A DNA stretch of 36,509 nt from Campylobacterota bacterium (GTDB lineage: Bacteria; Campylobacterota; Campylobacteria; Campylobacterales; Sulfurimonadaceae), in contig JAYEMF010000103.1 of NCBI GenBank assembly GCA_034717975.1, positions 1 through 36,509 on the forward strand, written 5' to 3'. This document shows positions 3,870-20,812 of the stretch, one piece after another. Below the pieces are notes generated by a model. It searched no databases, was not told where the DNA came from, and was given only the letters and a program-made list of their open reading frames with translations. Each line of letters starts with the position of its first letter. The stretch's first letter is position 1. Both the position numbers and the translations under genes were made by a program.

Positions 3870-4976
3870 TTAGATTACCGCTGATCTTTCCTCAATTATA
3901 ATTTCATACTCGATATTCGTGCCAGCTTCTATTTGTATGTCGGTGAGACCAGTGAAGAATACAGACTGATCCTTCATTGTTCCTTTTTTTACAGTATAGC
4001 CTGAACGGTAGGTACTGCTCTCAACGTATGAGATCGGATATTTCTTAATGAGGCCAAAGGCTGTGACGGCAATATAGATATCATGCTTCTCAATATATTC
4101 TTTTAAAAAGTTATCTTCGGACAATAGGCGTAAATACTCGTTCTGATAAGTGGTATGGTGCTCGGTGTGCGCAAGACCATTGAGGTCTGCTTCATGCTTT
4201 TCTCCCCAGGGCATGCGCCATCGAAAATCAACCTGAAGTTGACTATGATCCGGACTTTTACTTGAGAGACCTATTTTAACCTTGGTGGGCTTTATCACAA
4301 CACGCTTCCTGACATGGCTAAAGAAAGCGTCTGCCGCCAGTTTTCCATTGATACGGTTTAGGCGTTGTATGCGTACCTGACTCAACAGTTCCTTTGAGCT
4401 GATAGAAACAATTCTTTTAATATCCTCATTGATAATGTCAATTTGCTTTAACTCTATTTTCCTTAGCTTGACAGCTTCAAATAGTGCGTTGTTTGTCTTT
4501 TTGGCAAAACCTAAATCGGATAGATTCTTTATTTTGAGATTAAGTCTCTCGATCTGTCCCTCAATTTCTTTGTGCTTTTCCTCGAGCCTACTTAGTGCGG
4601 TTTTGGTTTCTGGTGTTGCGTTGAGGTATTCATCAATTCGGCTGTTGTCAACTTTCGCCTCGATAATAACAGTGCAGGTGTTTTTACTAAAATGAGTGCT
4701 AACAACTCTTGATCTCATGAGGGCGGCGGAGTAGACCCTGGCATCCTGCTTGCTAACCAGTGTGTCATCGGAGGATTGAGTATATGTAAAGCTTGATTGA
4801 ACTGCGGTACCGACTTTCTCGATAGCGTTGATCTTTGCAAGGCCTACTGCGACACTAGCCGCTTCCGCCTTGGTGTCGGAAGGTGCCATCTCATATATGC
4901 CGGTTGCTTGAATAGAAATAATTTCTCCATAAGCAGAAGCCATAAACAAAAATGTTAATAAAAGAAGCTTTTTCAT
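3870..4976 (-). CDS. Exported hypothetical protein with an LPP20/FlgT-N-like N-terminal domain and a coiled coil
   Basis: Signal peptide MKKLLLLTFLFMASAYG; motif A..AKINAIEKVG..VQS; RBS AAAGGA upstream. Confidence 0.7.
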   Translation of the reverse strand: MKKLLLLTFLFMASAYGEIISIQATGIYEMAPSDTKAEAASVAVGLAKINAIEKVGTAVQSSFTYTQSSDDTLVSKQDARVYSAALMRSRVVSTHFSKNTCTVIIEAKVDNSRIDEYLNATPETKTALSRLEEKHKEIEGQIERLNLKIKNLSDLGFAKKTNNALFEAVKLRKIELKQIDIINEDIKRIVSISSKELLSQVRIQRLNRINGKLAADAFFSHVRKRVVIKPTKVKIGLSSKSPDHSQLQVDFRWRMPWGEKHEADLNGLAHTEHHTTYQNEYLRLLSEDNFLKEYIEKHDIYIAVTAFGLIKKYPISYVESSTYRSGYTVKKGTMKDQSVFFTGLTDIQIEAGTNIEYEIIIEERSAVI

Positions 4977-5002
4977 TATTTTTCCTTTAGCTCTTGTATA
5001 TG

Positions 5003-5122
5003 AATACTACTAGTATACTACTATTAACATATTAATGTACGCATATTAATAGTATAAAATAAGTGACCACTAAGAAATACTACTATTAGTAGTATTATGA
5101 ACACACAATAAGCTCTTATTGT
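5003..5122. repeat. AT-rich cluster of direct and inverted repeats
   Basis: ATACTACTA at 5004, 5015 and 5077; palindrome AATACTACTA-T-TAGTAGTATT 5076-5096; TACTATTAA/TTAATAGTA at 5019-5027/5046-5054; CATATTAAT twice; ACAATAAG-CT-CTTATTGT 5105-5122. Confidence 0.75.
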
Positions 5123-5132
5123 ACTATTCATT

Positions 5133-5762
5133 TCATGCGCTGTGCGCTTTAGTATCCTGTTGAGCTACTGTTGGCATCTTTTCTGGAAAGTCGTAGTGCA
5201 GCGCTTTGATAAAATCGGTGATTAGCTTCAAATCGCTATTTGTGCCGCTTATTTTGCCAGAATGAACTAGGATATCGATAGCTTTGGGGTTTAGATCCGG
5301 ATAGCCTTCTTTAAAGAACTTGGAAAGAGCCCGCATTTTCCTGATATTGTTGGCCTTATTTTTTAGCGTAAGGTATATTATCCGCGCTTTTTTGTCAATT
5401 GAGTCCGCAAGATCCTTGTTTTGCTTTGATGCATGGGTAAACCCTTTGTATTTTTTTGTAATGGACATGTAGATCCTCGCACAACGTGAGGGGTATGCCA
5501 TTCTACCTTCCGCCGCGGCATTTATAAGCTCATTTTTAATGCACGTTCCCATTTTTCTTTCAATAGAGGTGTCTTTCTCTGCCTGCTTAACCAAGCCTGT
5601 AAACAACTTATCGTTTACGGCTAGATTTTTTAAAAATACATTGATAGCATTTTTTTCATCTACAGTGAATCCTCCTTGGATAATCTCATCTGTAAGGAGG
5701 TTTATCTGCTCTGCTGTCATGTTGACTTTGATAGGCATCTTATGATCCTTTTGGTTTTCCAT
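5133..5762 (-). CDS. Hypothetical lysine-rich cytoplasmic protein, divergent from traG
   Basis: 209-aa ORF with no recognisable motif. Confidence 0.65.
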   Translation of the reverse strand: MENQKDHKMPIKVNMTAEQINLLTDEIIQGGFTVDEKNAINVFLKNLAVNDKLFTGLVKQAEKDTSIERKMGTCIKNELINAAAEGRMAYPSRCARIYMSITKKYKGFTHASKQNKDLADSIDKKARIIYLTLKNKANNIRKMRALSKFFKEGYPDLNPKAIDILVHSGKISGTNSDLKLITDFIKALHYDFPEKMPTVAQQDTKAHSA

Positions 5763-6020
5763 TGTAATGATATCCTGCTTGCGCAGGTGTAATGGTATTT
5801 ATATTATTGTTTTATACGATTATGTGTATATGAAATGCTATTTCAGAAATGATAGCAGATATGGCCTGTGTTTTAGTAATTGTATTTTTAACTACCACTC
5901 AAGCGATGCAATAAAGTTTAGTGATATTTAGTGGGCCATCCTTGCTTGTTTGATGAGCGCAATACATTGAATCTTGTTCTATAGGGAGATGATCGCTCCA
6001 AGAAACTTTACTTCAAATTT

Positions 6021-6050
6021 TACGCAAAACGCAAAAAACGCCTTATTAGT
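6021..6050 (+). promoter_or_regulatory. Conserved promoter-like motif, copy upstream of traG
   Basis: TACGCAAAACGCAAAAAACGCCTTATTAGT ends 36 nt before the traG ATG; 29/30 identical to 20043-20072. Confidence 0.85.
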
Positions 6051-6086
6051 TATTTGTAGGGATATTGAACGCGACAAGGAAAAAAG

Positions 6087-9000
6087 ATGAAAAAAGTTCT
6101 GCCATTAATGCTGATATTTTTTGCTGGCAGTGCAATGGCTGCAACGGCACCAGACTCGGACACGATTTATACATGGGGCTATGGGCCATTTATGTTTCAG
6201 CAGCTTGCCGGACTTTCAAATATGATGGGGGATGGTTTTGCCATCAAGGTTGCCGCCGTGATCGGAATATTTTCTTTAGTCTTTAAAAAATTACTCGACC
6301 CAAGAACTTCTCATGTCTTGGAGGTGGGCAGATTCTTTTTTCTCAGCGTATTTATTTATTTTGGTTTTATGGTTGCCGTACCTGGGCACAGTACATATAA
6401 CATCAAGGATGTAACAAACGGGTATGCCGTTCAGGTGACGGGGATTCCTCTTGTGGTGGGCAAGTCCTTCGCTTTGTTCTCATCAATGGAGTATTTGATT
6501 GCCCAAGCAATAGAGCAAAGCTTTAGCACACCAAATTCGACTCAGTACGCCAATGCCGGTTTTGCATTTCCTTTGGCCGCGCATGAAGCAATGGCAAACG
6601 TAAGACCGGTAGCTCCATATATTCAGCAGAGTATGGATGAGTTCGTTGGGAACTGCTTGCTTTATGCTATTGACGAAGGAGCAATCGATCCCGTCGTTCT
6701 TTATAACAGCGCAGCGGTATATGATGATATGAATGTGAATGACCCCTCCAGGGTGACAATAGTTTATTCTGCGGCGAATCTGGTCGGAGACATAATGGGA
6801 TGTGATGTGGCGCAATCAGCCATAAAAACTATGTTGATTAATGAAGTCGGAAATATGGAGTCAGTAGCAGCAGCTTCAATGGGAGCTATAAATAAATACT
6901 CCGCAGTCGGCAATGTTGTGAGCAACAAGGCATCTGATGTCGCAATGGCGCTTTTTAACATGTCAAAAACATCGCAAGAGTACATTATGCAGTCGGCTGC
7001 CATTAATGCAATGCAGAGCTCTTTTGTGAATGTAGCTAAAGTTGCGGGCATTGACACTTACTCATTAGCATACGGAACAGCAACAGCAGAGAGGCAAGCG
7101 CAGACCAACTTCCTGATCAGTGGAAAACTGGCACAAAAGTACCTTCCTGTACTTAAGGGCGTATTAACGCTTACGATTGTCGGAATCAGTTGGCTGTTAG
7201 CTCTTTTTGCGCTGGCCTACTTTGATATGAAATACCTTTGGATGGTTTTCTCTTTACAGATATGGCTAATGCTCTGGACGCCTATCGCGGCAATTTACAA
7301 TAATATTCAGCTGCTCATGGTTCAGGCGATCCTTGAGCCATATTCAAGCGTCGGCAGTTGGTACACCCTAAACAATAAGAGTGTAGTCGATAATGAAGTT
7401 CTTTCCGCACTGTCTTGGATGGGTTATATCGGATGGCTTATTCCTCTTTTTGCATACGCTATCTCTAAAGGATCGGACCACGCATTTACTATGATGGCAA
7501 ACAGCTTATCCAGTGCAATGGGTGGCGCGACCGGTCAAGCCGCTGGAGAAGTGGCGAGAGGTAATATACAGCTTGGCGAAGTAAGGGCAGGACACAGGGA
7601 GGTGGTTGCAAACGGCTCATCATATTCAGAGGGTGCGTATGGCGCAAGATCCACTGAAGCCTTTAGGCAAAATGGCATGATTGGTACAACAGAACACACT
7701 CAATGGAAAGACCAGTCTGCGCGAACCGATAATTTGGGCGGCAAAAGTGTAATAAGCGATACTGCCGGAAACGCAACAAGCACCAATGCTGTTGACTCAA
7801 GAGTTCAGGGGGGTATCAATACGCAGCAGGCTCAAACAGTCACGACCGCACAATCCAAAATAGACACAATCTCTGACAAACAGGGAGAGACTGCTTCTGC
7901 CATGATGAAGCAGGCATATACGGCGACGAATGGCAACACCCATACGGAAGAGGGTAGCGAAGGATATACGAAAACCCAGCGTTTGGATGAGGTTACAAGA
8001 GGGGCATTCACAAAAGCCTACAATACTGACGACACTTTTCGAGAGAGCGTTACAAAATCTCTTGAAGCGAAGCTGGGAGCAGCGGGAGCTATGGATTTTG
8101 TCAAGGGCTTAAGCAAGGGGAGAGGTTCGGTCCGACCAAATGCAAGCGGGGGTTGGTCTGCCAAAGACGAGGAGGGCACAACGCATTCGTTCAGTGATAA
8201 GGAAACTGACACATTTGAGCGTTCCCTGGGAGAATCGGTAAGCGCTCAGATTTCATCCGGGCAAATGCAAAAGACAGCAACCAGCACAAGCAAGAACTCA
8301 TCCGACAGCAAAGAGTGGAACAAGGGCTTCTCTCAAATGACAGAGTATGGTGAACAGCTAAAAGAGGAGAATAAAAAAGTAAATCAGGCGCAAAAAGCAA
8401 TAACTGCCGCCGACAATATGGGAGCCGATACCTCAGCCGCTCTTTTTAATCATGTAAAAGCCAATTATAACGATAAAGTTGATGGCGAGGGCAACAAGGT
8501 GGAAGGAAGGGATCTTTCAAACAGAGAGGCGCTGGATAAATTTTTAACATACGGGAACCAAACACTAGGAGAAGAGGAGAGGACTCGACTAGATACTGTG
8601 ATGGGCGAATTTCTCAGTGGGCAGGGGGCCACTCAGGACGCAAGAACGGGCAACAAAAACAAGCTTGAGCCGAAGGAGGCCGCGAATATCAGCATGGATG
8701 GCGTGCCACAACCCGGACATATCGAAAAGAAATCTGCTAATGCAAAAGAGGCTCCGCTGGGCATTGAGGAGAATCTCGGAGGAGTCTTGAGTACAATACA
8801 CGATAGTAAGCAGCCGAGCACACACGTCGATCCCTTGAAGGCGAAACAAGAAAATCTTGAAACCTACATGAAGAATAAAAATAGTGCGGAAGCTCCGACC
8901 GGCAGTGTCGAGCAAGAGTTCAAGGACAGCTATCAGGATGTTCAGTTTCCAATGGCGGGACTGTATGCCGGAACAGCTATGGGAGTATTGGGAAGCCTGT

Positions 9001-9851
9001 TTGCTGATGGAGGCGGAGGAAAAGGCAACGCTCCGGGTCCGGAACAGCCAAGATCCCCTGATGAGGTTGCAAAAACCAATGAGGAGCTGAAGGGTAAAGT
9101 TGAGGACCTGGAAGCAAAAAGAGACGGCCTCACTAAAGAGTATAACACCAAGAGCGATATGAGCAATACCAAGCTGGCGAGAAGCGAATTGTCGGACATG
9201 GTGGGATCTAGGCTGTCTGGAATGGAGCCCGGATCGAGTGGATACGATGAGACCAGAAAACTACAGAGTGATATCCAGGGAGGCAAACCCGTATCTCGCG
9301 ATGATTTTGTGAATGCCGGTTTTTCTGAGGCGGATCTGACGGACAATGGTTTTGACTTCAAAAAAGGCGGGAGCCTTGGCGGCGAAGGCAAGGTTGTGGA
9401 TTTTGACACATCCGGAAAGAATATGAGGCCGGAAATTCTTTCTGAAATAAGCGGCGACCTTGACGCAACGAAGCATGATCTTGGTGTCACAAAAGCCAGT
9501 TATGATATGTCGAGCAAGCATCAGCTTGCCCTTGACGGCCCAGACAAGCCCGGTAGAATTCAGCAGGCGCTGGATGCCATTGATGGCGGCGGTGGCTGGA
9601 AAACGAAAACGAGCATGGCAGCAGGTGCTTTGATTTTTGGCAGCCAGAGCGAGACTTTTGCGAACACGCTGAGAGCGGCTGACCCCTTTGAGCATCTCAT
9701 GGGAACATCAATAGACAAGTCGAGTGAGCTTGAGTATAGTCAATACGGGCGGGGAGGAAATCAAGATGATGGAGGCCATGAGTATGTTTATGGCAACGAG
9801 CCTATTAGACCCGGGCAGGTTGAGCCATATAAAAACGAGACTGTGAAGTGA
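6087..9851 (+). CDS. traG: F-type mating-pair stabilisation protein TraG
   Basis: 1254 aa. IYTWG start, V.GIPL, multi-TM region with LQIWLMLWTPIAAIYN and GYIGWLIPLFAYAI, then a long Ser/Thr/Gly-rich C-terminal half. Confidence 0.88.
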   Translation: MKKVLPLMLIFFAGSAMAATAPDSDTIYTWGYGPFMFQQLAGLSNMMGDGFAIKVAAVIGIFSLVFKKLLDPRTSHVLEVGRFFFLSVFIYFGFMVAVPGHSTYNIKDVTNGYAVQVTGIPLVVGKSFALFSSMEYLIAQAIEQSFSTPNSTQYANAGFAFPLAAHEAMANVRPVAPYIQQSMDEFVGNCLLYAIDEGAIDPVVLYNSAAVYDDMNVNDPSRVTIVYSAANLVGDIMGCDVAQSAIKTMLINEVGNMESVAAASMGAINKYSAVGNVVSNKASDVAMALFNMSKTSQEYIMQSAAINAMQSSFVNVAKVAGIDTYSLAYGTATAERQAQTNFLISGKLAQKYLPVLKGVLTLTIVGISWLLALFALAYFDMKYLWMVFSLQIWLMLWTPIAAIYNNIQLLMVQAILEPYSSVGSWYTLNNKSVVDNEVLSALSWMGYIGWLIPLFAYAISKGSDHAFTMMANSLSSAMGGATGQAAGEVARGNIQLGEVRAGHREVVANGSSYSEGAYGARSTEAFRQNGMIGTTEHTQWKDQSARTDNLGGKSVISDTAGNATSTNAVDSRVQGGINTQQAQTVTTAQSKIDTISDKQGETASAMMKQAYTATNGNTHTEEGSEGYTKTQRLDEVTRGAFTKAYNTDDTFRESVTKSLEAKLGAAGAMDFVKGLSKGRGSVRPNASGGWSAKDEEGTTHSFSDKETDTFERSLGESVSAQISSGQMQKTATSTSKNSSDSKEWNKGFSQMTEYGEQLKEENKKVNQAQKAITAADNMGADTSAALFNHVKANYNDKVDGEGNKVEGRDLSNREALDKFLTYGNQTLGEEERTRLDTVMGEFLSGQGATQDARTGNKNKLEPKEAANISMDGVPQPGHIEKKSANAKEAPLGIEENLGGVLSTIHDSKQPSTHVDPLKAKQENLETYMKNKNSAEAPTGSVEQEFKDSYQDVQFPMAGLYAGTAMGVLGSLFADGGGGKGNAPGPEQPRSPDEVAKTNEELKGKVEDLEAKRDGLTKEYNTKSDMSNTKLARSELSDMVGSRLSGMEPGSSGYDETRKLQSDIQGGKPVSRDDFVNAGFSEADLTDNGFDFKKGGSLGGEGKVVDFDTSGKNMRPEILSEISGDLDATKHDLGVTKASYDMSSKHQLALDGPDKPGRIQQALDAIDGGGGWKTKTSMAAGALIFGSQSETFANTLRAADPFEHLMGTSIDKSSELEYSQYGRGGNQDDGGHEYVYGNEPIRPGQVEPYKNETVK

Positions 9852-10624
9852 AACATCTTGTACTGACATTGCTTTTTATCCTAAGCCTGCAATCTGCCGA
9901 CTCATTTTATTCTGATAAAAAAGACACATGGTTCTTTGGTGCTGAGCCGGTGAATGAAATCGATGAAAATGAAACCGCTCCAGAGCCGGCAGAAGACAGG
10001 ATGGCGGCAGAAGAGGAGTTCGTCAAAAATATTCCGTGGGAAAACCTTGATATGCTGAGCGCAGAGGAGTTTCAGGCAGCAATCAAGAAGACCAAAGAGA
10101 TAGCTGTCGTGCACCCTGCTCCTAAAAATATATCGGCATATATTCGCCTTCAGAAACACGCCACTGATCAGTCAGATCGATTCATGAAGGCGTGGCAGCT
10201 TGCCGTTATCCAAGACCCTTCGCTTACAGACAACCTTCCACAAGCAAAGCGGACTCGTGATAATAAACGTAAAAACGAGCAAGAGGAAAAAGACGACTTC
10301 ATCAAGGCCAACCTCAACAAAATCACGCTTGTTATGTTCTATGACGAAGAGAGGATGGGTGATGCAAGTACGCAGATTTTTGAGCTTAATGTTCTGAAGC
10401 AAAAATACGGAATAGCCTTTCAGAGTATTTCTATACAAAGCAACCCTTCCTATGAAAATGCACTTGGTCTGCAGGTGTACCCTGAAAATTGGTATTATTT
10501 TCAAGATGCGTCAGGCTCAAGTTGGAGGAGAATTGGCGCTGGAGTGAGAGGAGCGAGCGAACTGATAGATAATCTTATTTTGGTGCATAATTCAACTGAA
10601 AATGATGAAAATAGTAGAAATTAG
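9848..10624 (+). CDS. traF: Pilus assembly protein TraF (thioredoxin-like fold, no CXXC)
   Basis: Signal peptide; FY..K..WFF; AVVHP..NISAYIRLQK...SDRFMKAW; LVMFY..KQKYGI..ISI. Confidence 0.8.
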   Translation: MKHLVLTLLFILSLQSADSFYSDKKDTWFFGAEPVNEIDENETAPEPAEDRMAAEEEFVKNIPWENLDMLSAEEFQAAIKKTKEIAVVHPAPKNISAYIRLQKHATDQSDRFMKAWQLAVIQDPSLTDNLPQAKRTRDNKRKNEQEEKDDFIKANLNKITLVMFYDEERMGDASTQIFELNVLKQKYGIAFQSISIQSNPSYENALGLQVYPENWYYFQDASGSSWRRIGAGVRGASELIDNLILVHNSTENDENSRN

Positions 10625-10633
10625 CCTCTTTTT

Positions 10634-10663
10634 TACGCAAAACGAAAAAAACGGCTTATATAA
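10634..10663 (+). promoter_or_regulatory. Conserved promoter-like motif, copy upstream of traW
   Basis: TACGCAAAACGAAAAAAACGGCTTATATAA; 24 of the first 26 nt match the traG copy; ends 30 nt before the ATG. Confidence 0.8.
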
Positions 10664-10693
10664 ATAGTAACTAGGAATAATCGGAAAAAGAAT

Positions 10694-11335
10694 ATGAAAA
10701 AAAGCATCCACATCACACTGCTGCTTGCCATGTCGCTCAGCGCGGCGTCGCATACCTTTATGGAAGGCAAAACATACGAATTCGCAGAAAAAGATCTGCT
10801 TGTCGTCATTAACGAAAAGATAAACAATGAAAGGCCCCAGCTTCAGGCTAGGCTCGATGAAGCAAAAGAGCGCATTCGAGGAAATATTGAGAACTACAAG
10901 CCAGACGATCTAAACAAGCTGCCACCCGCAACGCAAGATAGAGTGTTTTATCCCGATATGACCTACACGCTTGAGATGGATATTCCTGATGCCGAGGGGA
11001 GAATAATTTATCCCAAAGGGTATAGCTACAACATATCTGACTACATATCTCTGCCTTACGAGATAGTCGTATTTGATGCGACTGATCCCAAGCAGCTCGC
11101 GTGGGTGATAGAAAATGAGTACCACACCAAAGCAGGGGAGCTTCTTATGATTACCGATGGTCAGCCGTTCAAGCTGATGAGGGAATTTAAAAAGCCTGTC
11201 TATTTCGCATTAAATAAGGTCCAGGAACGCTTTAAGCTCGAACATACCCCATCAAAAATAATCCAGATGGGAAATAAAATCAAAATAACAGAGGTTTGCT
11301 TGTCATGTACAAAACCAGAGGAGATAAAAAAATGA
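10694..11335 (+). CDS. traW: F-type pilus assembly protein TraW
   Basis: GKTYEFAEKDLL, DMTYTL..DIPDAEGRIIYPKG, FDATDPKQLAW, PVYF, HTPS. Confidence 0.9.
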   Translation: MKKSIHITLLLAMSLSAASHTFMEGKTYEFAEKDLLVVINEKINNERPQLQARLDEAKERIRGNIENYKPDDLNKLPPATQDRVFYPDMTYTLEMDIPDAEGRIIYPKGYSYNISDYISLPYEIVVFDATDPKQLAWVIENEYHTKAGELLMITDGQPFKLMREFKKPVYFALNKVQERFKLEHTPSKIIQMGNKIKITEVCLSCTKPEEIKK

Positions 11336-12216
11336 GAAAAAGTCTACTACTAAGTGTCTCGACGGCTTTGCTGTTGTTTTCAGGGTGCTCTTCCCGCGAG
11401 CCAGAGCCAGTTCCGGTGGAACTGGAAAAGAGCGAGGATGAAATGACCGTCGAAGAAGCGACGAAAATTATCGCCGAGCGCAACAAAGAGATCGTTATAG
11501 ATATTTCAAAATTGACCAAAGTGGTTGCCATCATCACCAAACAGCTTGAGGACTTGAGAGCAAAGACCGTAGAAGCAAAGGCGCTCGAAGAGGCGATTCG
11601 TGATAGTGAAGGCAGGATCGGTTCACTTGAAAAGAGGATTGCTGAACTCGAAAAAGTCAAGAAGATGTATTTAGCGCAGAAGGCGGTGATAGATGAACGA
11701 CTTAAAGCAGCTGAAGCAAATGTGGCCGATTATCAAAATGACAAGCGCATAGCCGAAGCGGTCAAAAAAACAAGTGGCGAATTTGAGAAGCGAAGCGGCT
11801 ATATTCGCATCAATTCATACCAGGTAAATCTAAGAGTCGCCCCTCTGGTGGGCAAGAAAACAAAACAGGAGTACGCAGAGCGAGGAGATGTGTTTGCATT
11901 TAAAGCGGTATCGAGCAAATGGTATCTACTGGAAAACGATCTCTATGTCCACGCTACTGTTGTTTGTGAGGATTGCTTAGTGGATGTAAATAAAGTCGAT
12001 GAAGGGTTGTCTCTTGAATCACCTGAAGTGAACTCTGAAGAAAAGCTGGTGAAAGAGACAGCTGTGGCTGAAGAAAAGACGGAAACAACCGAAGCCCCCA
12101 CTGTTCCGGAGGACGCAAAACTTGACATAAGCTTGCCAATCTTGACAGCCGAACAGATCAGTGAGGCCATGAGAGCCAAAGGGAGAGAGAAAAGCAGCGA
12201 GGACATTTTACAGTAA
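11332..12216 (+). CDS. Lipoprotein with a long coiled coil and an SH3b-like domain
   Basis: Lipobox LFSGC; heptad region; VNLRVAP...GDVF...SKWYLL...YVH; ATGA overlap with the traW stop. Confidence 0.7.
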   Translation: MRKSLLLSVSTALLLFSGCSSREPEPVPVELEKSEDEMTVEEATKIIAERNKEIVIDISKLTKVVAIITKQLEDLRAKTVEAKALEEAIRDSEGRIGSLEKRIAELEKVKKMYLAQKAVIDERLKAAEANVADYQNDKRIAEAVKKTSGEFEKRSGYIRINSYQVNLRVAPLVGKKTKQEYAERGDVFAFKAVSSKWYLLENDLYVHATVVCEDCLVDVNKVDEGLSLESPEVNSEEKLVKETAVAEEKTETTEAPTVPEDAKLDISLPILTAEQISEAMRAKGREKSSEDILQ

Positions 12217-13193
12217 TGAAAAAGCTGCTGCTGTTGCTACTCGTAACTATTTCACTGACCAGTCATGTTCATGCCCGGTGCGATATTTCATCAGGATTCG
12301 ATTTAATAACCCGAGCTTGTTTTGAGTGCATGTTTCCGCTTAGCATCGCGGCGGTCCCGGTGATGCATGGTCCAATGCCCGACGCGGCGGGACCGATAAC
12401 GACAGTGCCAATATGCGAGTGTCCAGCTCCTCCACCACTGTTTGTCCGCATAGGCGTTCCGCTGTCAATGTATAACCCCAACACGGTCATTGAAGCAGTG
12501 ACGGACCCTATGTGCATGCCTTCTTTGGGGCTGGACCTTGGAAGTCTGGTGCCGGCAGGAACATTAGGCGGTACGGATTCGGCTAAAAACAGCACAGGCG
12601 TACCGAGATCATTTTACCAAGCACACAAGCTGGCCTTCCCGATGATGTATCTGTTAGGGCTTTTCCTTGATAGCATCTGTTTTCAGCAGACGGATATTGA
12701 TATCATGTTCCTCACCGAGGTTGACCCCTCTTGGAACGAAGATGAGATAGCAGCGTATCTTGCCCCAGAAGCTCTTCTGTTCGGCAATCCGGTAGTTGCT
12801 TTGTCTTGCATGGCAGATGCCGTTACTGCCGCGGCATTCCACACACTAGACCCGCTGTTTTGGTGCAAGGGGTCACACGGAATGGCCTACCCTATGACGG
12901 GCAACGTACAATCAAAAAGTATGGTGGAGGATAGCGCATCAGCATCAGAAAACTTGCTTTATCATTTGCACCGATTGGGACTAGGGACAACACCGGGGCT
13001 TTGCTTTAAAATACCAACGCCAATTTGGAGAAAGGCAGACTATCGACTCCAGATTATCAAGCCTGTACCTCATCCGGTAGGAATGACAATCGGGCAGACA
13101 GGGTTGATGTGGGGTATGGGAAAGAACCCACCTTATATGGGCGATAACTTTGTCTATCTTATATTTAAAAAACTTAACTGTTGTGCATTTTAA
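12216..13193 (+). CDS. traU: Mating-pair protein TraU
   Basis: CFECMFPLSIA, PICECP, CMPSLG, SFYQAH, TEVDPSW, EALLFGNPV..LSCMAD, LFWCKG..G..YPMTG, terminal CCAF. Confidence 0.95.
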   Translation: MKKLLLLLLVTISLTSHVHARCDISSGFDLITRACFECMFPLSIAAVPVMHGPMPDAAGPITTVPICECPAPPPLFVRIGVPLSMYNPNTVIEAVTDPMCMPSLGLDLGSLVPAGTLGGTDSAKNSTGVPRSFYQAHKLAFPMMYLLGLFLDSICFQQTDIDIMFLTEVDPSWNEDEIAAYLAPEALLFGNPVVALSCMADAVTAAAFHTLDPLFWCKGSHGMAYPMTGNVQSKSMVEDSASASENLLYHLHRLGLGTTPGLCFKIPTPIWRKADYRLQIIKPVPHPVGMTIGQTGLMWGMGKNPPYMGDNFVYLIFKKLNCCAF

Positions 13194-13202
13194 GGAGCGC
13201 CC

Positions 13203-14156
13203 ATGTTGCGATATATAATTGTCAGCCTATTCTTGTCAGCCCTGCTTTTCGGAGCAGACGATATCACAGAAAAAAAAGAAGCCTTTGGCGAGCGATATCT
13301 TAAAAGTGACCGAATAGGAACGGATGCATCACATCTCGAAATGCTCAACAGCTTTAGTCAGCACGATATCCAAACAACGGATTTGAATATTTCTAAATAT
13401 ATCATTGATAATAATATTGAGAAGCTAGGTCAGACAAACCAAAATACACATGCCGTATCAGTAGCAGAGGACATTAGCGAGCAAGCGAAATCCGATGCTT
13501 TTAAAGCTACTATCGGGCGAAATATGGATCATATCATTAATGACGAAAAGCTTGATTGGGGGAAGTATCTCGGAGAATATAAAGACCAGACGCAGAACAT
13601 CATCGATCAGATGAAAAACGAAGATAGCCCGTACCTGTCAAAGAATAAATTTCTTGGCGCAAAGCAACGGTTATTTGTCGTCATCTCTTCATCCATGCCG
13701 GATGAGACAATAAGGCAGTATTTTTCTGATCTTGAAAGCGTTAACACCGACGTTGCGTTTGTTGTTAGAGGCGTTATGGGTGGGCCGGAAGCTATTATGC
13801 CGACCATTGAGTATTTTGACAAGCTTTTAATTAAAAATAAGAAAAGAGACAAGAAAGAGCCGGGCAATAGGTATAACCACAACATCACCATTAATCCAAA
13901 GATTACACAGCGTTTCGACATTGATCGCGTGCCTGCTGTTTTGTTTGTGGATAATTATGACCCTATCGCTGAAGCATATACGGGCAACAAGAAGGTGCAT
14001 GACGATGAAGATTTTTGGGTGCATTATGGCGATGTTGAAATCGAATACGCGCTGAAAACAATTAACCGATCTGCAAAGCGCCAGGGGCTAAAGACGCTGA
14101 TATCGGCAATGAACGATAGCTATTTTAAAACAAGGAAAACCATTGAGCAGCAATAA
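13203..14156 (+). CDS. trbC: F-type pilus assembly protein TrbC
   Basis: LFVVISSSMP, FVVRG, ITINP....FDIDRVPA, YGDV.IEYAL. Confidence 0.88.
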   Translation: MLRYIIVSLFLSALLFGADDITEKKEAFGERYLKSDRIGTDASHLEMLNSFSQHDIQTTDLNISKYIIDNNIEKLGQTNQNTHAVSVAEDISEQAKSDAFKATIGRNMDHIINDEKLDWGKYLGEYKDQTQNIIDQMKNEDSPYLSKNKFLGAKQRLFVVISSSMPDETIRQYFSDLESVNTDVAFVVRGVMGGPEAIMPTIEYFDKLLIKNKKRDKKEPGNRYNHNITINPKITQRFDIDRVPAVLFVDNYDPIAEAYTGNKKVHDDEDFWVHYGDVEIEYALKTINRSAKRQGLKTLISAMNDSYFKTRKTIEQQ

Positions 14157-14502
14157 AATAAGAGAATATATGGGTATTAGGATTGTGGCTATTGGCTTAG
14201 TGACTGCATCATACGGCATGGCAGCTACTTATGGAGCATTTGTTGAAAATATCACTGAATCCGAAATATTTAGACACATTGCAGAAGCGCCGCAGATCGC
14301 TTTGCTCGGTGCGGAATACATACTTCCTGCGCTGTTCTTGATCCTCTGGACGGGCATAGGAGTTTTTATATCCTCTGTGCTCTATCCTGCCGTAGAAACC
14401 GCATTTATGGAGGGCGTTGCACACCCTATATCCAAGATGTTTTCGAGGCTTGAGAAAACCATTAGAGGGAAGATAATGCTGGTCAAGAAGGAGGCGGTAT
14501 GA
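14143..14502 (+). CDS. Small membrane protein (2 TM), start uncertain
   Basis: Two hydrophobic segments; overlaps both neighbours in operon fashion. Confidence 0.6.
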   Translation: MSSNKIREYMGIRIVAIGLVTASYGMAATYGAFVENITESEIFRHIAEAPQIALLGAEYILPALFLILWTGIGVFISSVLYPAVETAFMEGVAHPISKMFSRLEKTIRGKIMLVKKEAV

Positions 14503-14903
14503 AAAAGAGCATAATCGGATTGTCTTTGTCGTTCGTGTCACTATGGGCGGAGCCGGCATATAGCGATATTTATGCCAGTGCGGATAAAGCTGTGTTCTCG
14601 CGAAAGCCAATTGTCTTTGTCGTTATGTCTTCTACATGCTCGCATTGTTACAGCTATTGGAATCGCACCCTGAGTGATCCGGACATAGAGACACTGCTTG
14701 ATAATAATTTTGAGCTTGCAGTATCTGTTGTTGATCAGGGAGGAAAGATCCCTTCAAATCTTCCCTTTAAGGGACAGTTGCCCACAACATATATTCTTTC
14801 TGCTGATGCCAAATTGCTATCTAATCCCATTGAAGGCGATATTGACAAGACGAAACTATATAGCTTGCTATACAGTCTAAATGAGGCGAGACGAAGCGAG
14901 TAG
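14499..14903 (+). CDS. Exported thioredoxin-family protein (TrbB/SoxW-like)
   Basis: Signal peptide, KPIVFVV, CSHC, cis-Pro loop LPTTYIL; RBS AGGAGG. Confidence 0.8.
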   Translation: MKKSIIGLSLSFVSLWAEPAYSDIYASADKAVFSRKPIVFVVMSSTCSHCYSYWNRTLSDPDIETLLDNNFELAVSVVDQGGKIPSNLPFKGQLPTTYILSADAKLLSNPIEGDIDKTKLYSLLYSLNEARRSE

Positions 14904-14952
14904 GCGAACGCCAGGCGTGATTTCATGCAAATACAAAAAAAAGAGGCTTGTT

Positions 14953-15453
14953 ATGATGGCGGTTACCCATGTGATTACATCACTTCTTGTTGCTTCTGCT
15001 CCGATAGTCATCGGATATAACTTTAACTACGACACAGGGCTGATCTACTTGGCATCCACCGCGCTCGGTGCCCTGATAATTGACATTGATGAGCCTAAAT
15101 CTTTCGCCGGAAGGCGTTTATACTTCTTTTCATTTCTTATTAATATGAGCCTTGGACATAGGACTATCACGCATAATTACTTTATCGCAATTATAGGCTT
15201 GATTCTCTCATGGTTCTATTGGCAAAACATTTATGCGGTTGGATTTTTTTTGGGAATGACGGTGCACATAATGGGTGATGAAATGACGGGAAATGTAAAA
15301 GGTGCCTATTGGCCGATCAGTGAAAGGTTTTCTCTTTTTCCGAAGGGTTGGCGCTTCAGGGTGGGAGGCTTTGTTGAGCGAGTGATTGCCACATGTTCGA
15401 CTATCCTGCTCATAGCGATTCACGGTTACGGGGTGATGCGTGGAATACTCTGA
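14953..15453 (+). CDS. YdjM-like metal-dependent membrane hydrolase
   Basis: TH, DIDEPKS..GR, GHRTITH and HIMGD..T motifs in a hydrophobic protein. Confidence 0.85.
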   Translation: MMAVTHVITSLLVASAPIVIGYNFNYDTGLIYLASTALGALIIDIDEPKSFAGRRLYFFSFLINMSLGHRTITHNYFIAIIGLILSWFYWQNIYAVGFFLGMTVHIMGDEMTGNVKGAYWPISERFSLFPKGWRFRVGGFVERVIATCSTILLIAIHGYGVMRGIL

Positions 15454-15454
15454 A

Positions 15455-16009
15455 ATGGCCATCGCAAATTTTGTTGGACTCTTTTTTATTTCCGCCTACA
15501 CAAAGCTCAGAAACTTTGTAGTCGCAGGCGAAAACGGAGTCATGGTCGCTGTTATTTTTTTCTTTGGAACCATTTTGCACGAAATTAGCCATTTGCTGAT
15601 GGTGTGGGCTACGCTAAGCAGAGCAACCAGTATTGACCTGGTGCCAAGGATGGCGGATGTGAAAACGGATTTTGGGCTAATTGAGCGTCGGTGGACGCTG
15701 GGCGGTGTGACCTATATCCCTCGCAGCAAGCTTGCATACTTTCCAGCCGGGATGGCTCCTTTACTATTGATTGTTCCCGCATTTATTGTGTATTCCAACT
15801 GGCTTACATGGTTTGAGGTGTCGTGGGTTTCGATTGTGTCACTCTATGTTGTCGTGTACTTATTGCTGTTTAGCAGCATTCCTTCTCCGTCCGACTTTCG
15901 CATAGCCTTCGAAGGTAACGGATGGGCAGTCTGGATTCTGATTATTGCCGTTACGGCAGCGATTTACAATTTCCATATAAAGGAGCTAATCGATGTCATA
16001 TCAATATGA
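15455..16009 (+). CDS. Membrane zinc metalloprotease-like protein (HExxH; M50-like/zincin)
   Basis: GTILHEISH, LGGV, APL and PSPSD motifs; several TM segments. Confidence 0.75.
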   Translation: MAIANFVGLFFISAYTKLRNFVVAGENGVMVAVIFFFGTILHEISHLLMVWATLSRATSIDLVPRMADVKTDFGLIERRWTLGGVTYIPRSKLAYFPAGMAPLLLIVPAFIVYSNWLTWFEVSWVSIVSLYVVVYLLLFSSIPSPSDFRIAFEGNGWAVWILIIAVTAAIYNFHIKELIDVISI

Positions 16010-18389
16010 TAATTTAATGATCGTGGAATCGCCGACGAAAGCGAGCACGATCGCAGGATTTTTGCGTGACGCCCCAGGACGATGGCTGGTCAAGGCCACA
16101 AGGGGACATATTCAGAATCTTCCGAATGATCGGCACGGCATAGAGCATGCCAATGGCCAGTTTCGTGGAGAGTGGGTATACACAAAAGGAAAAAAAGAGT
16201 TAGCCAGAGAGCTTGTTGGTGATGCGAAAAATGCCCTTGAGGCCATTTATATAGCTACTGATGGTGATTACGAAGGGGAGCGGATTGCTTCAGACCTATT
16301 CAATGTGGCCGGAATCGGAAAGCTTGGAAAGCCGTGCTATCGCATTGTTTTTAGGCAGATAACAAAAGATCATATTCTTGAGGTGCTGCAAAACACGACC
16401 GAGGGCTTGATAGACGGAAACTCCGTTGATGCCCAAAAGGCCCGACGAATGATATATCGAGAAGTAGGATTTCCGATATCACAAATCCTACTCAAAGACT
16501 TTAAGCGCAATAGGGAAAAGGAGCTTCCTGAGGGAACCGGCAATGTTATAGCCCCTGCCTTGAGGCTGATCGTTGAAGCGGAACGAAAGATTGATGTTTA
16601 TGTTGAAATGGATTTCGAAAAAGTCTATGCCGATTACATATTTGACGGGGTGCATATTAGGCTTGTGATGCAGGCAAAATTTCAAAGCGAACACAGCGTT
16701 GAGCTTTCAGAGATTCTTCACACTGTGCGTAATTCACCGCACATAGTCAAGGAGTATGACGAGAAGGATAGTGAAAAGTCACCGCCAAAACCCTTGACGA
16801 CTTCGGGCCTGCAAAGGGGCGCTTGGTATCTTTTTGGCATTGAAGAAGAGGGGACGATGAGGTTGGCTCAGAAGCTCTTTGAAGGACTAGAGCTTTATGG
16901 CAAGCGGACAGGATTGATCACCTATATGCGTACCGATTCTCATCACATAGCAAAAGAAGCAAGTGAAGAAGCGATCCAGATTGTGGAGCAGCTGTTCGGC
17001 GAAGAATATACACTTTATGGCATAAGGGACTATTCTCAGGGGAAAAGTGAAGATGAGTCACAAGAAGAGCACCCTCATGAAGCCATTAGGCCGACACAGT
17101 TTTCGCAAGAGTATTGGCCGGATAACATCAAAGAGCAGCTATTGCAACATGAAGATGGGGAGAGTCTCTTAAAGATCTATCGTTTTATCTATAACTCTTT
17201 CTTGTGCGTTCAAATGCCAAACGCACAATATGACCGCTCTCGAATAGAGGTGTCTGCGGGAGGAAACCTTTTGCTTGGACAGGCAAATCAGCAACTATTT
17301 GATGGATGGGAAATCATAGGACACGAGATTAGAGCGAACTACAAGGATCAGCGAGGGCACGAAAAAGAAGTCATTTTGCCTCCCGTCGAAGAGGGTATAG
17401 AGGTTGGCTATATCGATGTTTCCACTATGTCACTATCCTCGCGTTCTCCTGAACGATACGGAAGAGGGCGCTTTATAACCACGCTGGAAAATAAAGGGAT
17501 CGGGAAGCCATCCACTTTGGCGACAGTCATAAAATCACTCATGAAGAAAAAATATATCAAAGAGCTCAATGACGGTAATAGTAAAAAGCATAAAACGCTG
17601 AAGCCAACAGATCTTGGAAGAAAAGTATATGCATGGCATGAGTTGCACGTGCCATGGCTTATTGATCTGGAGACAGCTAAAAAGCTTGAAGAGTTTCTTG
17701 TGAAAGTTGAGAAAGGGGAGATGCCCTACAATGAACTGATCGGCATATTTCATGAATCCGTAGAAGAGTTAAAGCGGTCTATGGGCTATGACCTGGATGG
17801 GCCAACAGAAGGGCAAATAAGCCTTGCAAAAAAGATCGCGAAACAAAAAGGGCAAATGCTTGACAATAATTTTTTAGCGTCGGCAAAGATAGTATCTCTG
17901 TATATCAAAGAAAATATTGATGCGCTGGAGACAATTTGTACGTGCAGTGTGTGTGGCAAAGGTGAGCTCTATGACGGGGAGGTAAAGCTTGCCTGCAATA
18001 ATCCTAAGTGCGACTTTGAAATTTGGAAAAACAGAATGGATGGTTTTTTTGAAGCCTTCAAGGTAGAAATGCAGCAGAAGGACTGTGGAGATGTTGTCAA
18101 AATAATCATGGAAAACGGCGATGTTTTGATTAATAATATGACAGGGAAAAAAGGCCATCCCTTTAGCGCTGAGGTTGATATAGCATACGACAAGAAGTAT
18201 AAAAACTACAGCCTCCATATTAAAAAGTTCGTCAAGGACGATATGTTCAAGAGTGTTGAAAGTTCTGCTCCGGAAGTGCCATTGCGGCGCGATACAATAG
18301 ACGCTCCTGTTGATGAAAACAAGATAATGGCTGAAGTGCCACGAGCGGTCGAGCCCACAAAGCAAGCCGGAGGCTTTGAGTGGAATTAA
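15993..18389 (+). CDS. Type IA DNA topoisomerase with C-terminal zinc ribbon and Topo III-like tail; several motifs divergent
   Basis: IVESPTKA, GHI, ATDGDYEGE, LITYMRTDS (catalytic Tyr), HEAIRPT, GIGKPST, CSVC..C....C. Confidence 0.92.
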   Translation: MSYQYDNLMIVESPTKASTIAGFLRDAPGRWLVKATRGHIQNLPNDRHGIEHANGQFRGEWVYTKGKKELARELVGDAKNALEAIYIATDGDYEGERIASDLFNVAGIGKLGKPCYRIVFRQITKDHILEVLQNTTEGLIDGNSVDAQKARRMIYREVGFPISQILLKDFKRNREKELPEGTGNVIAPALRLIVEAERKIDVYVEMDFEKVYADYIFDGVHIRLVMQAKFQSEHSVELSEILHTVRNSPHIVKEYDEKDSEKSPPKPLTTSGLQRGAWYLFGIEEEGTMRLAQKLFEGLELYGKRTGLITYMRTDSHHIAKEASEEAIQIVEQLFGEEYTLYGIRDYSQGKSEDESQEEHPHEAIRPTQFSQEYWPDNIKEQLLQHEDGESLLKIYRFIYNSFLCVQMPNAQYDRSRIEVSAGGNLLLGQANQQLFDGWEIIGHEIRANYKDQRGHEKEVILPPVEEGIEVGYIDVSTMSLSSRSPERYGRGRFITTLENKGIGKPSTLATVIKSLMKKKYIKELNDGNSKKHKTLKPTDLGRKVYAWHELHVPWLIDLETAKKLEEFLVKVEKGEMPYNELIGIFHESVEELKRSMGYDLDGPTEGQISLAKKIAKQKGQMLDNNFLASAKIVSLYIKENIDALETICTCSVCGKGELYDGEVKLACNNPKCDFEIWKNRMDGFFEAFKVEMQQKDCGDVVKIIMENGDVLINNMTGKKGHPFSAEVDIAYDKKYKNYSLHIKKFVKDDMFKSVESSAPEVPLRRDTIDAPVDENKIMAEVPRAVEPTKQAGGFEWN

Positions 18390-18405
18390 ACATTAAAGGA
18401 CGATA

Positions 18406-19950
18406 TTGACAGCAAAAAGTGATTTTTTTTCAGGAATGAAGGCGACATCAGCCACTGGTAGGACGATCAGTATAGAGGAGATGACCAGCGGGGAAAGTTT
18501 GCTGCTAGGCAAGCATTATGCTAATCCATCAAAAGAGCCTGTTTCTTACAACCCCGATTTGATGCCAAATAGCCATGTACTTCTTTTGGGTAAATCCCAG
18601 ACAGGCAAAACCACTACGCTAAAAAAATTTATCGAGTATATGGGGAAGCCTAGAGATATCCCCGGCTACAGTGAGCCAGTACAGAAAACCGGATTTGTCC
18701 TTGATTTTAGTGGGGACCTGGGTGTTCCAGGAGAAAACTCGATTCTTATAAAAGGCCGGAAGTCACAATATGGCCTCAATCTATTTGAATTGTTTTCAAA
18801 AGATTACAATTCAGGCGGAGTGAACGTCCAAAGGGCGAATATCATACGGATGATTGAGCGATACTTTCTTGGCGGGGGCATGGGATCTGTTCAGAGTTCC
18901 GTGATGGAACAATTGATATCCGACACATATGCACTCAAAGGCATCTTTGATGATAAGGAAGAGACTTGGGATAATGAGTTGCCTGTTGCTGAGGATATGC
19001 TTGAGCTTCTTATATTGATAGTCGATTCGGCTGAAACGGCCTTGTCGGTCAATATGCTAAAAAAGATCAAAGCTGATGGAAAAAGGATAAGAAAACTGGA
19101 TGGACACATAGATGTTGCAAAAGATAAAATAGATCTGCTTGAGAAAAAAGGGGAAGGGGACAAGGTAGCTCAGGGGAAAATTGGGAAAATTGCCGACCAG
19201 CTCAGTAAGCTTGAAGATGATCGCAACAGTTTGTATAACGGGCTAAAAACTCTAATGAGCGACTTCCTAGACCACAAAATTTATGGCGAAGAAGCCGGGG
19301 GAGAAATTATTATTGAGGACGATAAGCCATTGAATGTGGATATCGGGTTTTACAGTGAGCGCAATGCCTTGAATGCTCTCAAGTCTTTGAGGCCACATTT
19401 GCAAAAGATCGTTGAATCTGGTGCTTTTAGTGGACAGCTGCCCCCAATCAAACGAGGGGTTAACCGGATCGATCTCTCATTGTTGTCATTGCCACTTCAA
19501 AAACTCTTCACAGATCTGTTTGCACAAAAGGCTTTTACCAGCGTGCGCAGCAGAGGTGTGTATCGCGAGTGGCCTAACAGGGTTGATTCATTCCGTATTG
19601 ATGTGTTTTTCGTGATAGATGAAGCCAAGCTCATAATTCCTGAAGGAAGGGCTGCCAAAGAGAGCAAAGAAGAGCCAATAAATCGGATCGTTGCGGAGTC
19701 GTTAAAGTTCGGAATGTGCATCCTGATGGCCTCTCAGAAAATAAGCCATTTTTCGTCTGAAATGCTTACAAATGCGAGTTTCAAGCTGATTCTTCAGCTT
19801 GGTCCAAACGACATGCAGGCGGCAAAAACGATGCTTGGATTAAAAGAGGGCGACATGAGAGTATTGCAACATTTTGGTGTTGGACTTGTCTTAGATGGCA
19901 CAAAGAAACCAGTACCGACCGTCTTTCCTTGGGCAAACATTCCAAATTAG
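18406..19950 (+). CDS. FtsK/HerA-superfamily (HerA/VirB4-like) soluble ATPase with a coiled-coil insertion
   Basis: NSHVLLLGKSQTGKT (Walker A), FVLDFSGD, FFVIDEA (Walker B), KFG..ILMASQ; no TM segment. Confidence 0.85.
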   Translation: MTAKSDFFSGMKATSATGRTISIEEMTSGESLLLGKHYANPSKEPVSYNPDLMPNSHVLLLGKSQTGKTTTLKKFIEYMGKPRDIPGYSEPVQKTGFVLDFSGDLGVPGENSILIKGRKSQYGLNLFELFSKDYNSGGVNVQRANIIRMIERYFLGGGMGSVQSSVMEQLISDTYALKGIFDDKEETWDNELPVAEDMLELLILIVDSAETALSVNMLKKIKADGKRIRKLDGHIDVAKDKIDLLEKKGEGDKVAQGKIGKIADQLSKLEDDRNSLYNGLKTLMSDFLDHKIYGEEAGGEIIIEDDKPLNVDIGFYSERNALNALKSLRPHLQKIVESGAFSGQLPPIKRGVNRIDLSLLSLPLQKLFTDLFAQKAFTSVRSRGVYREWPNRVDSFRIDVFFVIDEAKLIIPEGRAAKESKEEPINRIVAESLKFGMCILMASQKISHFSSEMLTNASFKLILQLGPNDMQAAKTMLGLKEGDMRVLQHFGVGLVLDGTKKPVPTVFPWANIPN

Positions 19951-20042
19951 CCATCAATCCTTTCTGGATTGCGGCCATCTTGTCACCAAAAAATAGAAAT
20001 TCCGCACAAATTGACTAAAATCCCACCTTTTTTTAATTTTTC

Positions 20043-20072
20043 TACGCAAAACGCGAAAAACGCCTTATTAGT
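20043..20072 (+). promoter_or_regulatory. Conserved promoter-like motif, copy upstream of traA
   Basis: TACGCAAAACGCGAAAAACGCCTTATTAGT; 29/30 identical to 6021-6050; ends 46 nt before the ATG. Confidence 0.85.
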
Positions 20073-20485: not shown

Positions 20486-20509
20486 TCAATCAGAAAAGGA
20501 AACAGGACC

Positions 20510-20812
20510 ATGGAAGATCACCAAGAAAAATATATCTTCATTAATAAATATATCGAATCGCTGCCATTTTTTATCTATTGGGAGATGGATGTAATCATTG
20601 TCTGGGCGTGTATCTTCGGAGTAGGTTTTATGTTTACAACCGGACTTAAAATGTTCATCCTCGCTCTTTTGGCTTTTTATATTGCCAGTGTATATGCAAA
20701 ACAGAAAAGAACTCGACAGAAGGGGTTTTTTGCTCACCTGTTTTACTCTTTTGGTCTCAGGGGAACAAAAAAGCTCGTCCCATCGCATATGCGAATCTTT
20801 CACGGAGGTTGA
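20510..20812 (+). CDS. traL: TraL
   Basis: 100 aa; INKYIE..P.FIYWEMD, GFFAHLFYSFG, VPSHMRIF.G. Confidence 0.9.
   Translation: MEDHQEKYIFINKYIESLPFFIYWEMDVIIVWACIFGVGFMFTTGLKMFILALLAFYIASVYAKQKRTRQKGFFAHLFYSFGLRGTKKLVPSHMRIFHGG

Follow-up and report, generated by a model that had tools for sequence, protein, structure and literature searches.

A 30-bp motif ahead of the transfer operons of a plasmid-like element from a Campylobacterota bacterium: probable promoter of an element-encoded sigma factor

The sequence analysed here, referred to as the window, is the whole of contig C103 (36,509 nucleotides, nt), one of the 149 contigs in the 2.52-Mb genome of a brine bacterium of the phylum Campylobacterota. 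The gene content of the window is that of an F-type type IV secretion cluster, and its transfer (tra) genes lie in three blocks, each headed by a copy of the same 30-bp motif. This 30-mer is probably the cognate promoter, and probably an autoregulated one, of a sigma factor encoded by the element itself (2555-3118), a reading given a probability of about 0.68. The promoter reading had been proposed in an earlier note made from the letters of the window. Every computational prediction drawn from it was borne out, and a parallel arrangement was found in a second, distantly related element in another genome (G464).

Distribution of the motif

The three 30-mers quoted by the earlier note are present as exact sequences on the plus strand at 6021, 10634 and 20043 (Table 1). 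Each follows the T-rich tract described for it, the preceding 40 nt being AT/T-rich (65-75% A+T). Each also ends, as had been stated, 30-46 nt before traG, traW or traA, and the profile matches of the three genes agree with those names: TraG_N for the gene at 6087 (PF07916, E 2e-54), TraW for the gene at 10694 (TIGR02743, E 2.8e-32, under the model cut-off) and a TraA-family pilin for the gene at 20119 (NF041281, E 1.7e-8, under the model cut-off). The distance from TACGCA to the TAT-hexamer is 17 nt, again as described. A 26-nt degenerate pattern of the motif, searched with up to three mismatches, matches only copies 1-3 in the window and has no match in 100 dinucleotide-preserving shuffles (chance expectation 0). 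The 30-mer is the sole well-conserved multi-copy intergenic repeat family in the window. None of the listed differences among metagenome contigs (40 of 112) falls within the three canonical window copies; the element-bearing runs are four DNA runs of one study.

In the whole genome there are five copies at up to three mismatches, all in forward orientation and none on the chromosome, and the reversed control gives 0. A 30-nt weight matrix scores the five copies at 41-54 bits and the next best match at 19.7 bits. The bipartite pattern CGCAAAACG-N12-TAT has six matches on both strands of the 2.52 Mb, all on the element; CGCAAAACG alone has 29 matches, of which 24 are background. The only bipartite match beyond the five copies, at window position 2432, lies ahead of the sigma gene, within a degenerate sixth copy. 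Of the motif's first 12 positions, 11 are retained in this copy, as are, in register, the CG at 19-20 and the TAT; the A-tract spacer is not. This site is a candidate autoregulatory promoter of the sigma gene. The earlier note had predicted that a scan of the full genome would find a copy before the traD and relaxase genes and few on the chromosome, and this is what the scan gave: one of the two further copies, both on contig C93, heads the operon with the TraD and relaxase-like genes. Within this genome the motif is restricted to the element, with 5/5 strong copies and 6/6 bipartite matches lying on it.

The element extends beyond the window. The tail of contig C53 equals the head of C103 over 127 nt, and the head of C53 is a near-identical strain variant of the end of C93. 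Because these ends chain together, C93-C53-C103 is, as far as contig overlaps tell, one plasmid-like scaffold of ~52 kb that bears every motif copy. Each of the six sites lies between genes and has the orientation of the gene that follows, whose start codon is 25-96 nt past the end of the TAT-hexamer. A promoter-like layout, taken as two blocks at fixed spacing, intergenic, in gene sense and shortly upstream of a gene, is found at all six of these sites and at all three sites of the G464 element described below.

Three of the 30-mers are identical across all 30 nt and a fourth differs by one base, as would be expected if a short cassette had recently been duplicated and the copies had no function in common. 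The identity, however, ends abruptly at the edges of the motif and the flanks are unrelated. Every copy is also intergenic and gene-oriented, and a parallel motif occurs in the G464 element, which leaves this explanation with next to no probability.

Chromosomal intergenic hairpin repeats at C111 28009, 33909 and 34529 and at C29 31213 open with TACGCAAAACGAGCAAAAGCCCGTTTTAC and have the first 12 nt of the motif in common with it, apparently by chance. The C111 look-alikes, being such hairpins, were rejected as motif copies. A single near-match in genome G195 was also attributed to chance, because it sits in the 3' end of a coding region beside a hairpin.

Table 1. Motif sites and other features of the window and of contig C93
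Feature	Contig	Position	Strand	Remarks
Motif copy 1, TACGCAAAACGCAAAAAACGCCTTATTAGT	C103	6021-6050	+	Heads traG-traF; ends 36 nt 5' of the traG ATG (6087)
Motif copy 2, TACGCAAAACGAAAAAAACGGCTTATATAA	C103	10634-10663	+	Most divergent canonical copy; ends 30 nt 5' of the traW ATG (10694)
Motif copy 3	C103	20043-20072	+	Heads traA-L-E-K-B-dsbC-V-C...traN; ends 46 nt 5' of the traA-like pilin ATG (20119)
Motif copy	C93	5402		Heads actin-like segregation gene, three ORFs, TraD coupling protein and HD-domain relaxase-like gene
Motif copy	C93	11395		Heads small ORFs truncated by the contig end
Degenerate sixth copy, TCCGCAAAACGCCCTCTTCGTAATATAAAG	C103	2430-2459	+	96 nt before the likely ATG of the sigma gene (2555)
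Putative sigma-70-family factor, two domains (2 and 4)	C103	2555-3118	+	187 aa; near-orphan
Truncated NusA paralog, NTD-S1-KH by fold	C103	3111-3839	+	GTG start overlaps the sigma stop (GTGACTGA)
Tra block 1	C103	6087-10624	+	traG (TraG_N), traF
Tra block 2	C103	10694-19950	+	traW, orf, traU, trbC, small orfs, YdjM-like, topoisomerase III-like, P-loop ATPase-like
Tra block 3	C103	20119-36507	+	traA-like, traL, traE, traK, traB, dsbC, traV, traC, trbI, S26 peptidase, traH, orf, traN, orf, S49 peptidase, orfs; continues past the contig end
Histidine kinase (151-1617) and receiver-only response regulator (1614-2192)	C103	151-2192	-	Divergent from the sigma operon
Two 26-nt direct repeats, TAATGTnTTnCATTATGGnnTAAACA	C103	2307-2332, 2364-2389		Between the response-regulator and sigma genes
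ORF, open reading frame; NTD, N-terminal domain.

The sigma-like protein, its NusA-like partner and their relatives

The identity of the protein at 2555-3118 is carried by its predicted structure. The AF2 model (mean pLDDT 73.6) has two confident helical domains with a disordered linker between them. All 49 rows listed by Foldseek are sigma chains, three of which are named by mnemonics alone and presumably stand for sigma-H, -B and -D; the best is 6dv9_F (E 0.011, probability 0.99), and none is as low as E 0.001. The Foldseek-independent comparison by VIA matches model residues 1-90 to sigma domain 2 (3ugo, Z 7.5, root-mean-square deviation (rmsd) 2.4 Å, 64 aa; also 4x8k and 8b3z) and residues 124-187 to region 4 (8jzt, Z 7.4, rmsd 1.6 Å, 57 aa; 5fgm, Z 7.3; 2h27, Z 6.2), and sigma factors make up ~30 of its 50 rows. 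In a language-model feature search, clusters named as sigma or ECF (extracytoplasmic function) factors score 0.97. Both the domain 2 fold, which serves core binding and -10 recognition, and the C-terminal region 4 helix-turn-helix, which serves -35 recognition, are found. By these models the protein is of sigma-70-family fold and a putative sigma factor, in agreement with the earlier note, which had taken this neighbouring ORF for a sigma gene.

A HMMER search against 1.84 billion representatives returned, besides the protein's own cluster, only four remote homologs, at E 1.5e-5 to 6e-4. An N-terminus of the form M..P..F.F..HW is common to these homologs and supports ATG 2555 as the true start of the gene. 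The Sigma70_r2 model reaches the window protein at E 0.034, and a profile search of PDB sequences found no sigma. The host has only two canonical Sigma70_r2 genes.

The sigma gene is translationally coupled to the following ORF. The 19 best-listed Foldseek rows for the product of this ORF are NusA chains (E 3.4e-12 to 1.9e-5, 153-297 aligned columns), and TIGR01953 matches it at E 7e-8 over model positions 60-236, far under the cut-off. The domain order NTD-S1-KH is found, so that the fold agrees with the naming of this ORF as a NusA paralog in the earlier note. The host's own full NusA is encoded on C75 (314.8 bits) and is longer than the paralog of the element. Complex prediction for the sigma and the NusA-like protein gave a score of 0.01. 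In the literature searched, no relevant publication on the pairing of a sigma with a NusA paralog or NusA-like protein on plasmids was found.

Relatives were sought by profile searches of 400 genomes of the class, plus a phylum sample, with the window's own genome included in the counts. The sigma family is present in 3/401 genomes of the class and 4/401 of the phylum sample, being found in G230, G464 and, partially, G249; a further member, in G454, was found separately from these searches. The pair of sigma and NusA-like genes is conserved in four elements. In G454, G230 and G464 the gene 3' of the sigma gene aligns end to end with the NusA-like protein of the window, with pairwise E values of 1e-7 for G454 and 0.005 for G230.

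The most informative relative is the distantly related F-type element of G464, whose sigma homolog has a profile E of 8e-11. Here a CI-type repressor gene is divergent from a helicase-sigma-NusA-like-Rep3 operon, and the tra genes form the blocks dsbC-traF-traH, traA-like-traL-traE and traK-traB-traV-traC. At the head of each of these three blocks stands TTCCAAAAA-N13-TGTTTTAATTG, with a spacer that is not conserved. The exact motif has three matches in the G464 genome, all on the element and in gene sense. At one mismatch there is one site, before a chromosomal lectin-domain gene; at two mismatches there is one, antisense inside a gene; and at three mismatches there are nine, the reversed control giving six in all. 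When the sites of both elements are anchored on the CAAAA they share, the downstream block starts 14 nt later in 9/9 sites, as TAT in the element of the window and TGT in G464. A degenerate site before the G464 sigma operon, ATCCAAAAA-N13-AGCTTATACCT, was not counted, because its downstream block agrees at only 4/11 positions and the word that makes up its first block is frequent in this AT-rich genome.

The element of G230 is without traA, traL and traE. Its dsbC and traK heads carry an identical ~110-bp leader in which, by eye, the downstream block is seen with one mismatch together with a poorer upstream block at 12-nt spacing. The element (seen at 3774-5873 and 9379-11478 of locus L019 and at the L019/L020 junction) lies in a complete one-contig chromosome, adjoins a GmrSD restriction gene and a gene for a fused E2/ThiF/JAB protein, and may represent an integrated element in decay. 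In G454, a scan with the bipartite pattern was discarded as without signal (20 matches vs 16 in the control), and no TraC was found in this 65% complete genome. The sigma-like ORF of G454 (C11 10293-11282) has no stop at the homologous end and continues for 329 codons across the NusA-like gene in a different frame, which may reflect a lost stop codon or an assembly error.

Wider searches returned little. No relatives were found in PLSDB (megablast of 2300-12000; tblastn of the sigma), the exact motif pattern had 0 matches in genome_contigs, metagenome_contigs and viral_contigs, and a word-seeded protein search with the sigma and the NusA-like protein returned their own clusters only. The related-locus search with TraG found none, and the one with P0008 gave a single locus that was dismissed as chance, there being no ORF on the matched strand. 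None was found in viral contigs searched with the sigma and with the remote homolog P0002.

Promoter and alternative readings of the motif

We infer that the sigma binds the motif, with domain 4 reading the upstream block T-A-C-G-CAAAA-CG and domain 2 reading the TAT-hexamer that starts 14 nt past CAAAA. Transcription would start a few nt past the motif, which would give leaders of ~20-55 nt. The five promoters would drive every transfer and segregation operon seen, that is, traG-traF, traW to the ATPase-like gene, traA-traN onward, the unit of actin-like, traD and relaxase-like genes, and one unit cut by the contig end. The weaker sixth copy ahead of the sigma gene would add positive feedback. 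The sigma would probably form the middle tier of a cascade, beneath the adjacent histidine kinase and response regulator, which are the likely upstream input to the sigma operon. The co-translated NusA paralog would most likely act post-initiation on the same polymerase.

Several findings weigh against this reading. Sequence support for the sigma is weak: TIGR02937 is reached at E 1e-3, with 18.5 bits vs a cut-off of 42.9, and Sigma70_r2 at E 0.03-0.08 in two of six family members, with 14.4 bits for PF04542 vs a cut-off of 24. The structural Z-scores are below 8, which is middling on the tool's own scale. At the motif itself, the spacer (A-tract and ACGSC) is as conserved as the blocks in 5/6 sites. 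A sigma normally needs no spacer conservation. The 5' part of the motif includes two tandem 9-nt units (GCAAAACGC/GAAAAACGC), as the site of a DNA-binding protein may do. Chance would supply ~0.5 extra bipartite matches from the 24 background occurrences of CGCAAAACG; one extra match is unremarkable per se, and the degenerate copy is notable because of its location and orientation, not the match count. This copy also shows a C>T at 2434, in the upstream block, in one of the four metagenome runs and is therefore not strictly constrained. A partial seventh copy, TAAGCAAAACGTAAAAAACGGA (C93 335-356, minus strand), follows immediately on the parB stop and has 19/22 positions of the motif's 5' part, a stringency at which the reversed control has no match. 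Block and spacer are retained in it but the TAT is missing, and 16 nt separate its end from the ATG of a 35-codon hydrophobic ORF. Without a TAT and only 16 nt from the ATG, it cannot be a promoter of the 30-mer form. The conserved spacer and this parB-adjacent half-site favour a box for a DNA-binding protein, or contacts beyond those of a plain sigma. With regard to the relatives, the CAAAA-N14-T concordance was noticed post hoc, the downstream block of G464 (TGnTTTAAT) resembles the extended -10 of a housekeeping sigma, and the motif scan of the related G230 element gave no match at up to three mismatches.

The main rival reading is an activator box that overlaps the -35 (class II activation, of which AcaCD/SetCD and Pho boxes are examples), where a protein at positions 1-22, encoded by the element or by the host, would recruit the housekeeping holoenzyme to the TAT-hexamer and the element sigma would act elsewhere or not at all. 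Such a box would explain the conservation of the 5' 22 nt, spacer included, in five sites, the two tandem 9-nt units and the occurrence of a box without a -10 after parB. The downstream block of G464, with its resemblance to an extended -10, fits as well, and so does the usual rule for MOBH/F-type elements, which is that master activators have boxes before every tra operon. The hexamer itself, however, fits poorly. Its last base is G or A in 6/6 sites, never T, and there is no TG upstream, so it would make a poor housekeeping -10. A sigma-70 consensus scan called none of the six sites, the upstream hexamer matching TTGACA at 3/6 positions. In the three sites of G464 and in the one ahead of the sigma gene the two blocks are conserved and the spacer is not, and an activator box would leave a conserved element sigma without a visible target on its own element. 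Domain scans of the ORFs covered 36 window and 12 C93 ORFs with Pfam, 28 of those with NCBIfam, and 19 unassigned ORFs, including three on C53, with Pfam at relaxed thresholds. They revealed no other transcription-factor domains on the element, and no FlhDC-like, helix-turn-helix or ribbon-helix-helix regulator was found in the scanned ORFs of C103, C93 and C53, several of which have no assignment. An activator box is, on balance, unlikely.

The earlier note had also considered the motif as a loading site for the NusA paralog, that is, a post-initiation signal in the RNA or the non-template strand (nut- or ops-like) with the transcription start further upstream. This would suit the position of the NusA paralog next to the sigma gene, where the two are conserved together in four elements, and the length of the tra operons (9-16 kb). 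But the intergenic DNA upstream of copies 1 and 2 has no called sigma-70-like promoter, upstream of copy 3 there is one 9/12 sigma-70 match (19994-20021), and copy 2 begins only 10 nt past the traF stop. The RNA around the motif is no more structured than shuffles (z -0.5 to +0.6 in the 4/4 sites folded), and the two-block form with a free spacer in G464 suits a promoter better. A NusA-loading role is accordingly very unlikely.

The place of the partial copy, abutting the parB stop where centromeres are often found, raises the alternative of a ParB binding site, for a global regulator of the KorB/NAH7-ParB type or a scattered centromere. A precedent is NAH7, whose ParB is reported to bind six sites near tra genes and to activate them, so that there too a short site recurs near plasmid transfer genes and raises transcription (PMC12421886). 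The NAH7 sites are described in the same text as 18-bp inverted repeats bound by ParB (PMC12421886). The 30-mer, in contrast, is asymmetric, shows no inverted-repeat symmetry of the ParB/parS type and is strictly gene-oriented, and far better ParB candidates exist in two perfect 24-bp palindromes, TTTAAGnGTTCCGGAACnCTTAAA, upstream of parA (C93 2184-2208 and 2299-2323), which are likely parS or operator sites. A ParB site is highly improbable. In the strain-variant contig C53 (~128-150), the A-tract of the parB-adjacent copy is shorter by one base.

The element and its place among known systems

Besides the transfer genes, the scaffold carries putative replication and segregation functions. 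C93 encodes parA, parB and a Rep-like gene with a weak Rep3_C match. Besides four iterons of ~40 bp (4548-4732), CGTTCGnnnTTTCGGTAAAT recurs four times and a 39-mer three times in its ~1 kb of non-coding DNA at 4421-5346, which is probably a replication and/or transfer origin; a 109-codon ORF at 5005-5334 is built of these repeats and is a doubtful gene. On C53, between parB and the kinase gene, a PAP2-like membrane protein (733-1221) and a TonB-dependent receptor with Plug and beta-barrel domains (1305-3401) are apparent cargo. Each of the two 26-nt direct repeats between the response-regulator and sigma genes holds an internal inverted repeat, TAATGTnnnnCATTA, and the pair may serve as an operator at the regulatory tier upstream.

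In the window, three ATACTACTATTA-containing repeats (5001-5111) lie between the unassigned minus-strand genes 3870-4976 and 5133-5762, the former with a signal-peptide-like N-terminus. The traW block closes with the topoisomerase III-like gene (15993-18389; Toprim and Topoisom_bac) and a 514-aa P-loop ATPase-like gene (18406-19950). The ribosome-binding contexts of traL (20488-20513) and of the S49 peptidase gene (33927-33952) both hold AATCAGAAAAGGAAAC (85% over 26 nt). In runs X1 and X2, contigs of 2319 and 1065 nt match window 5524-5832 at ~89% (33-34 differences, 4 gaps) and then diverge, so these samples may contain a second related element.

Among known systems, the AcaCD/SetCD boxes of IncC plasmids and SXT/R391 integrative conjugative elements (ICEs) serve as binding sites for FlhDC-like activators, which act together with the host sigma. 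They resemble the present case in that a single conserved box precedes every transfer operon of an element with a MOBH relaxase and an F-type type IV secretion system, at the place of the -35. The difference is that a sigma-family gene is present here instead, and no FlhD/FlhC-like gene was found in the scanned ORFs. Group 4 (ECF) sigmas likewise have domains 2 and 4 only and a bipartite promoter of fixed spacing; they also have a promoter copy before their own operon, for which the degenerate site would be the candidate here. The consensus of ECF promoters is AAC at -35 and CGT at -10, 16-17 nt apart, whereas in the 30-mer AAAC ends at position 10, the invariant CG at 19-20 is only 8 nt away, and it is TAT that stands in -10 register. 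Furthermore, the Pfam and NCBIfam ECF models are not reached by the window sigma, no anti-sigma domain was found beside the sigma gene in domain scans, and the downstream partner is a NusA paralog, unlike in ECF systems.

The closest mechanistic precedent is found in the conjugative transposon Tn916, with its sigma Sig7-8 and the promoter Psig7. Sig7-8 is described as a split sigma that autoactivates the main promoter and is required for excision and conjugation (bioRxiv 10.64898/2026.10.01.756105). On that description, both cases would have an element-encoded sigma driving its own transfer-related transcription and a promoter copy before its own gene, giving positive feedback. Sig7-8 consists of two subunits, and the major promoter of Tn916 is a single one; here a 187-aa chain holds both domains and the site stands at five operon heads. 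Tn916 is, moreover, a Gram-positive ICE with another type of secretion system and, as far as that text goes, no NusA paralog, and the sigmas are compared by description only. SigN of the Bacillus plasmid pBS32, cited in the same preprint, is also a plasmid-encoded, autoactivating sigma; as cited there, its role is in plasmid hyper-replication and cell death and not in a conjugation regulon, and its host is of another phylum (bioRxiv 10.64898/2026.10.01.756105).

A wider reading, which is tentative and rather doubtful, treats the minimal sigma and the coupled truncated NusA paralog as a portable kit for transcription, used by F-type conjugative elements in this group of bacteria and comprising private promoters ahead of each transfer operon, a handover to NusA and a host-independent programme. 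NusA binds the polymerase flap where sigma region 4 binds. Because the binding place is the same, the NusA paralog would take over the same polymerase and would carry transcription through the 9-16-kb operons. If this is true, the transfer programme would be largely independent of host promoter rules and termination.

The control of transfer expression is known for few model plasmids, nearly all of them relying on activator or repressor proteins and the host sigma. In the present element, a conjugative plasmid probably turns on its transfer machinery via private promoters, the whole transfer regulon being apparently wired to a private sigma, with a promoter that can be read from sequence and a NusA paralog alongside. 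The sigma family is missed entirely by standard annotation and is rare among the sampled genomes of the phylum. A system of a single small protein and a 30-bp site would be easy to test, and it is a candidate orthogonal pair of promoter and sigma.

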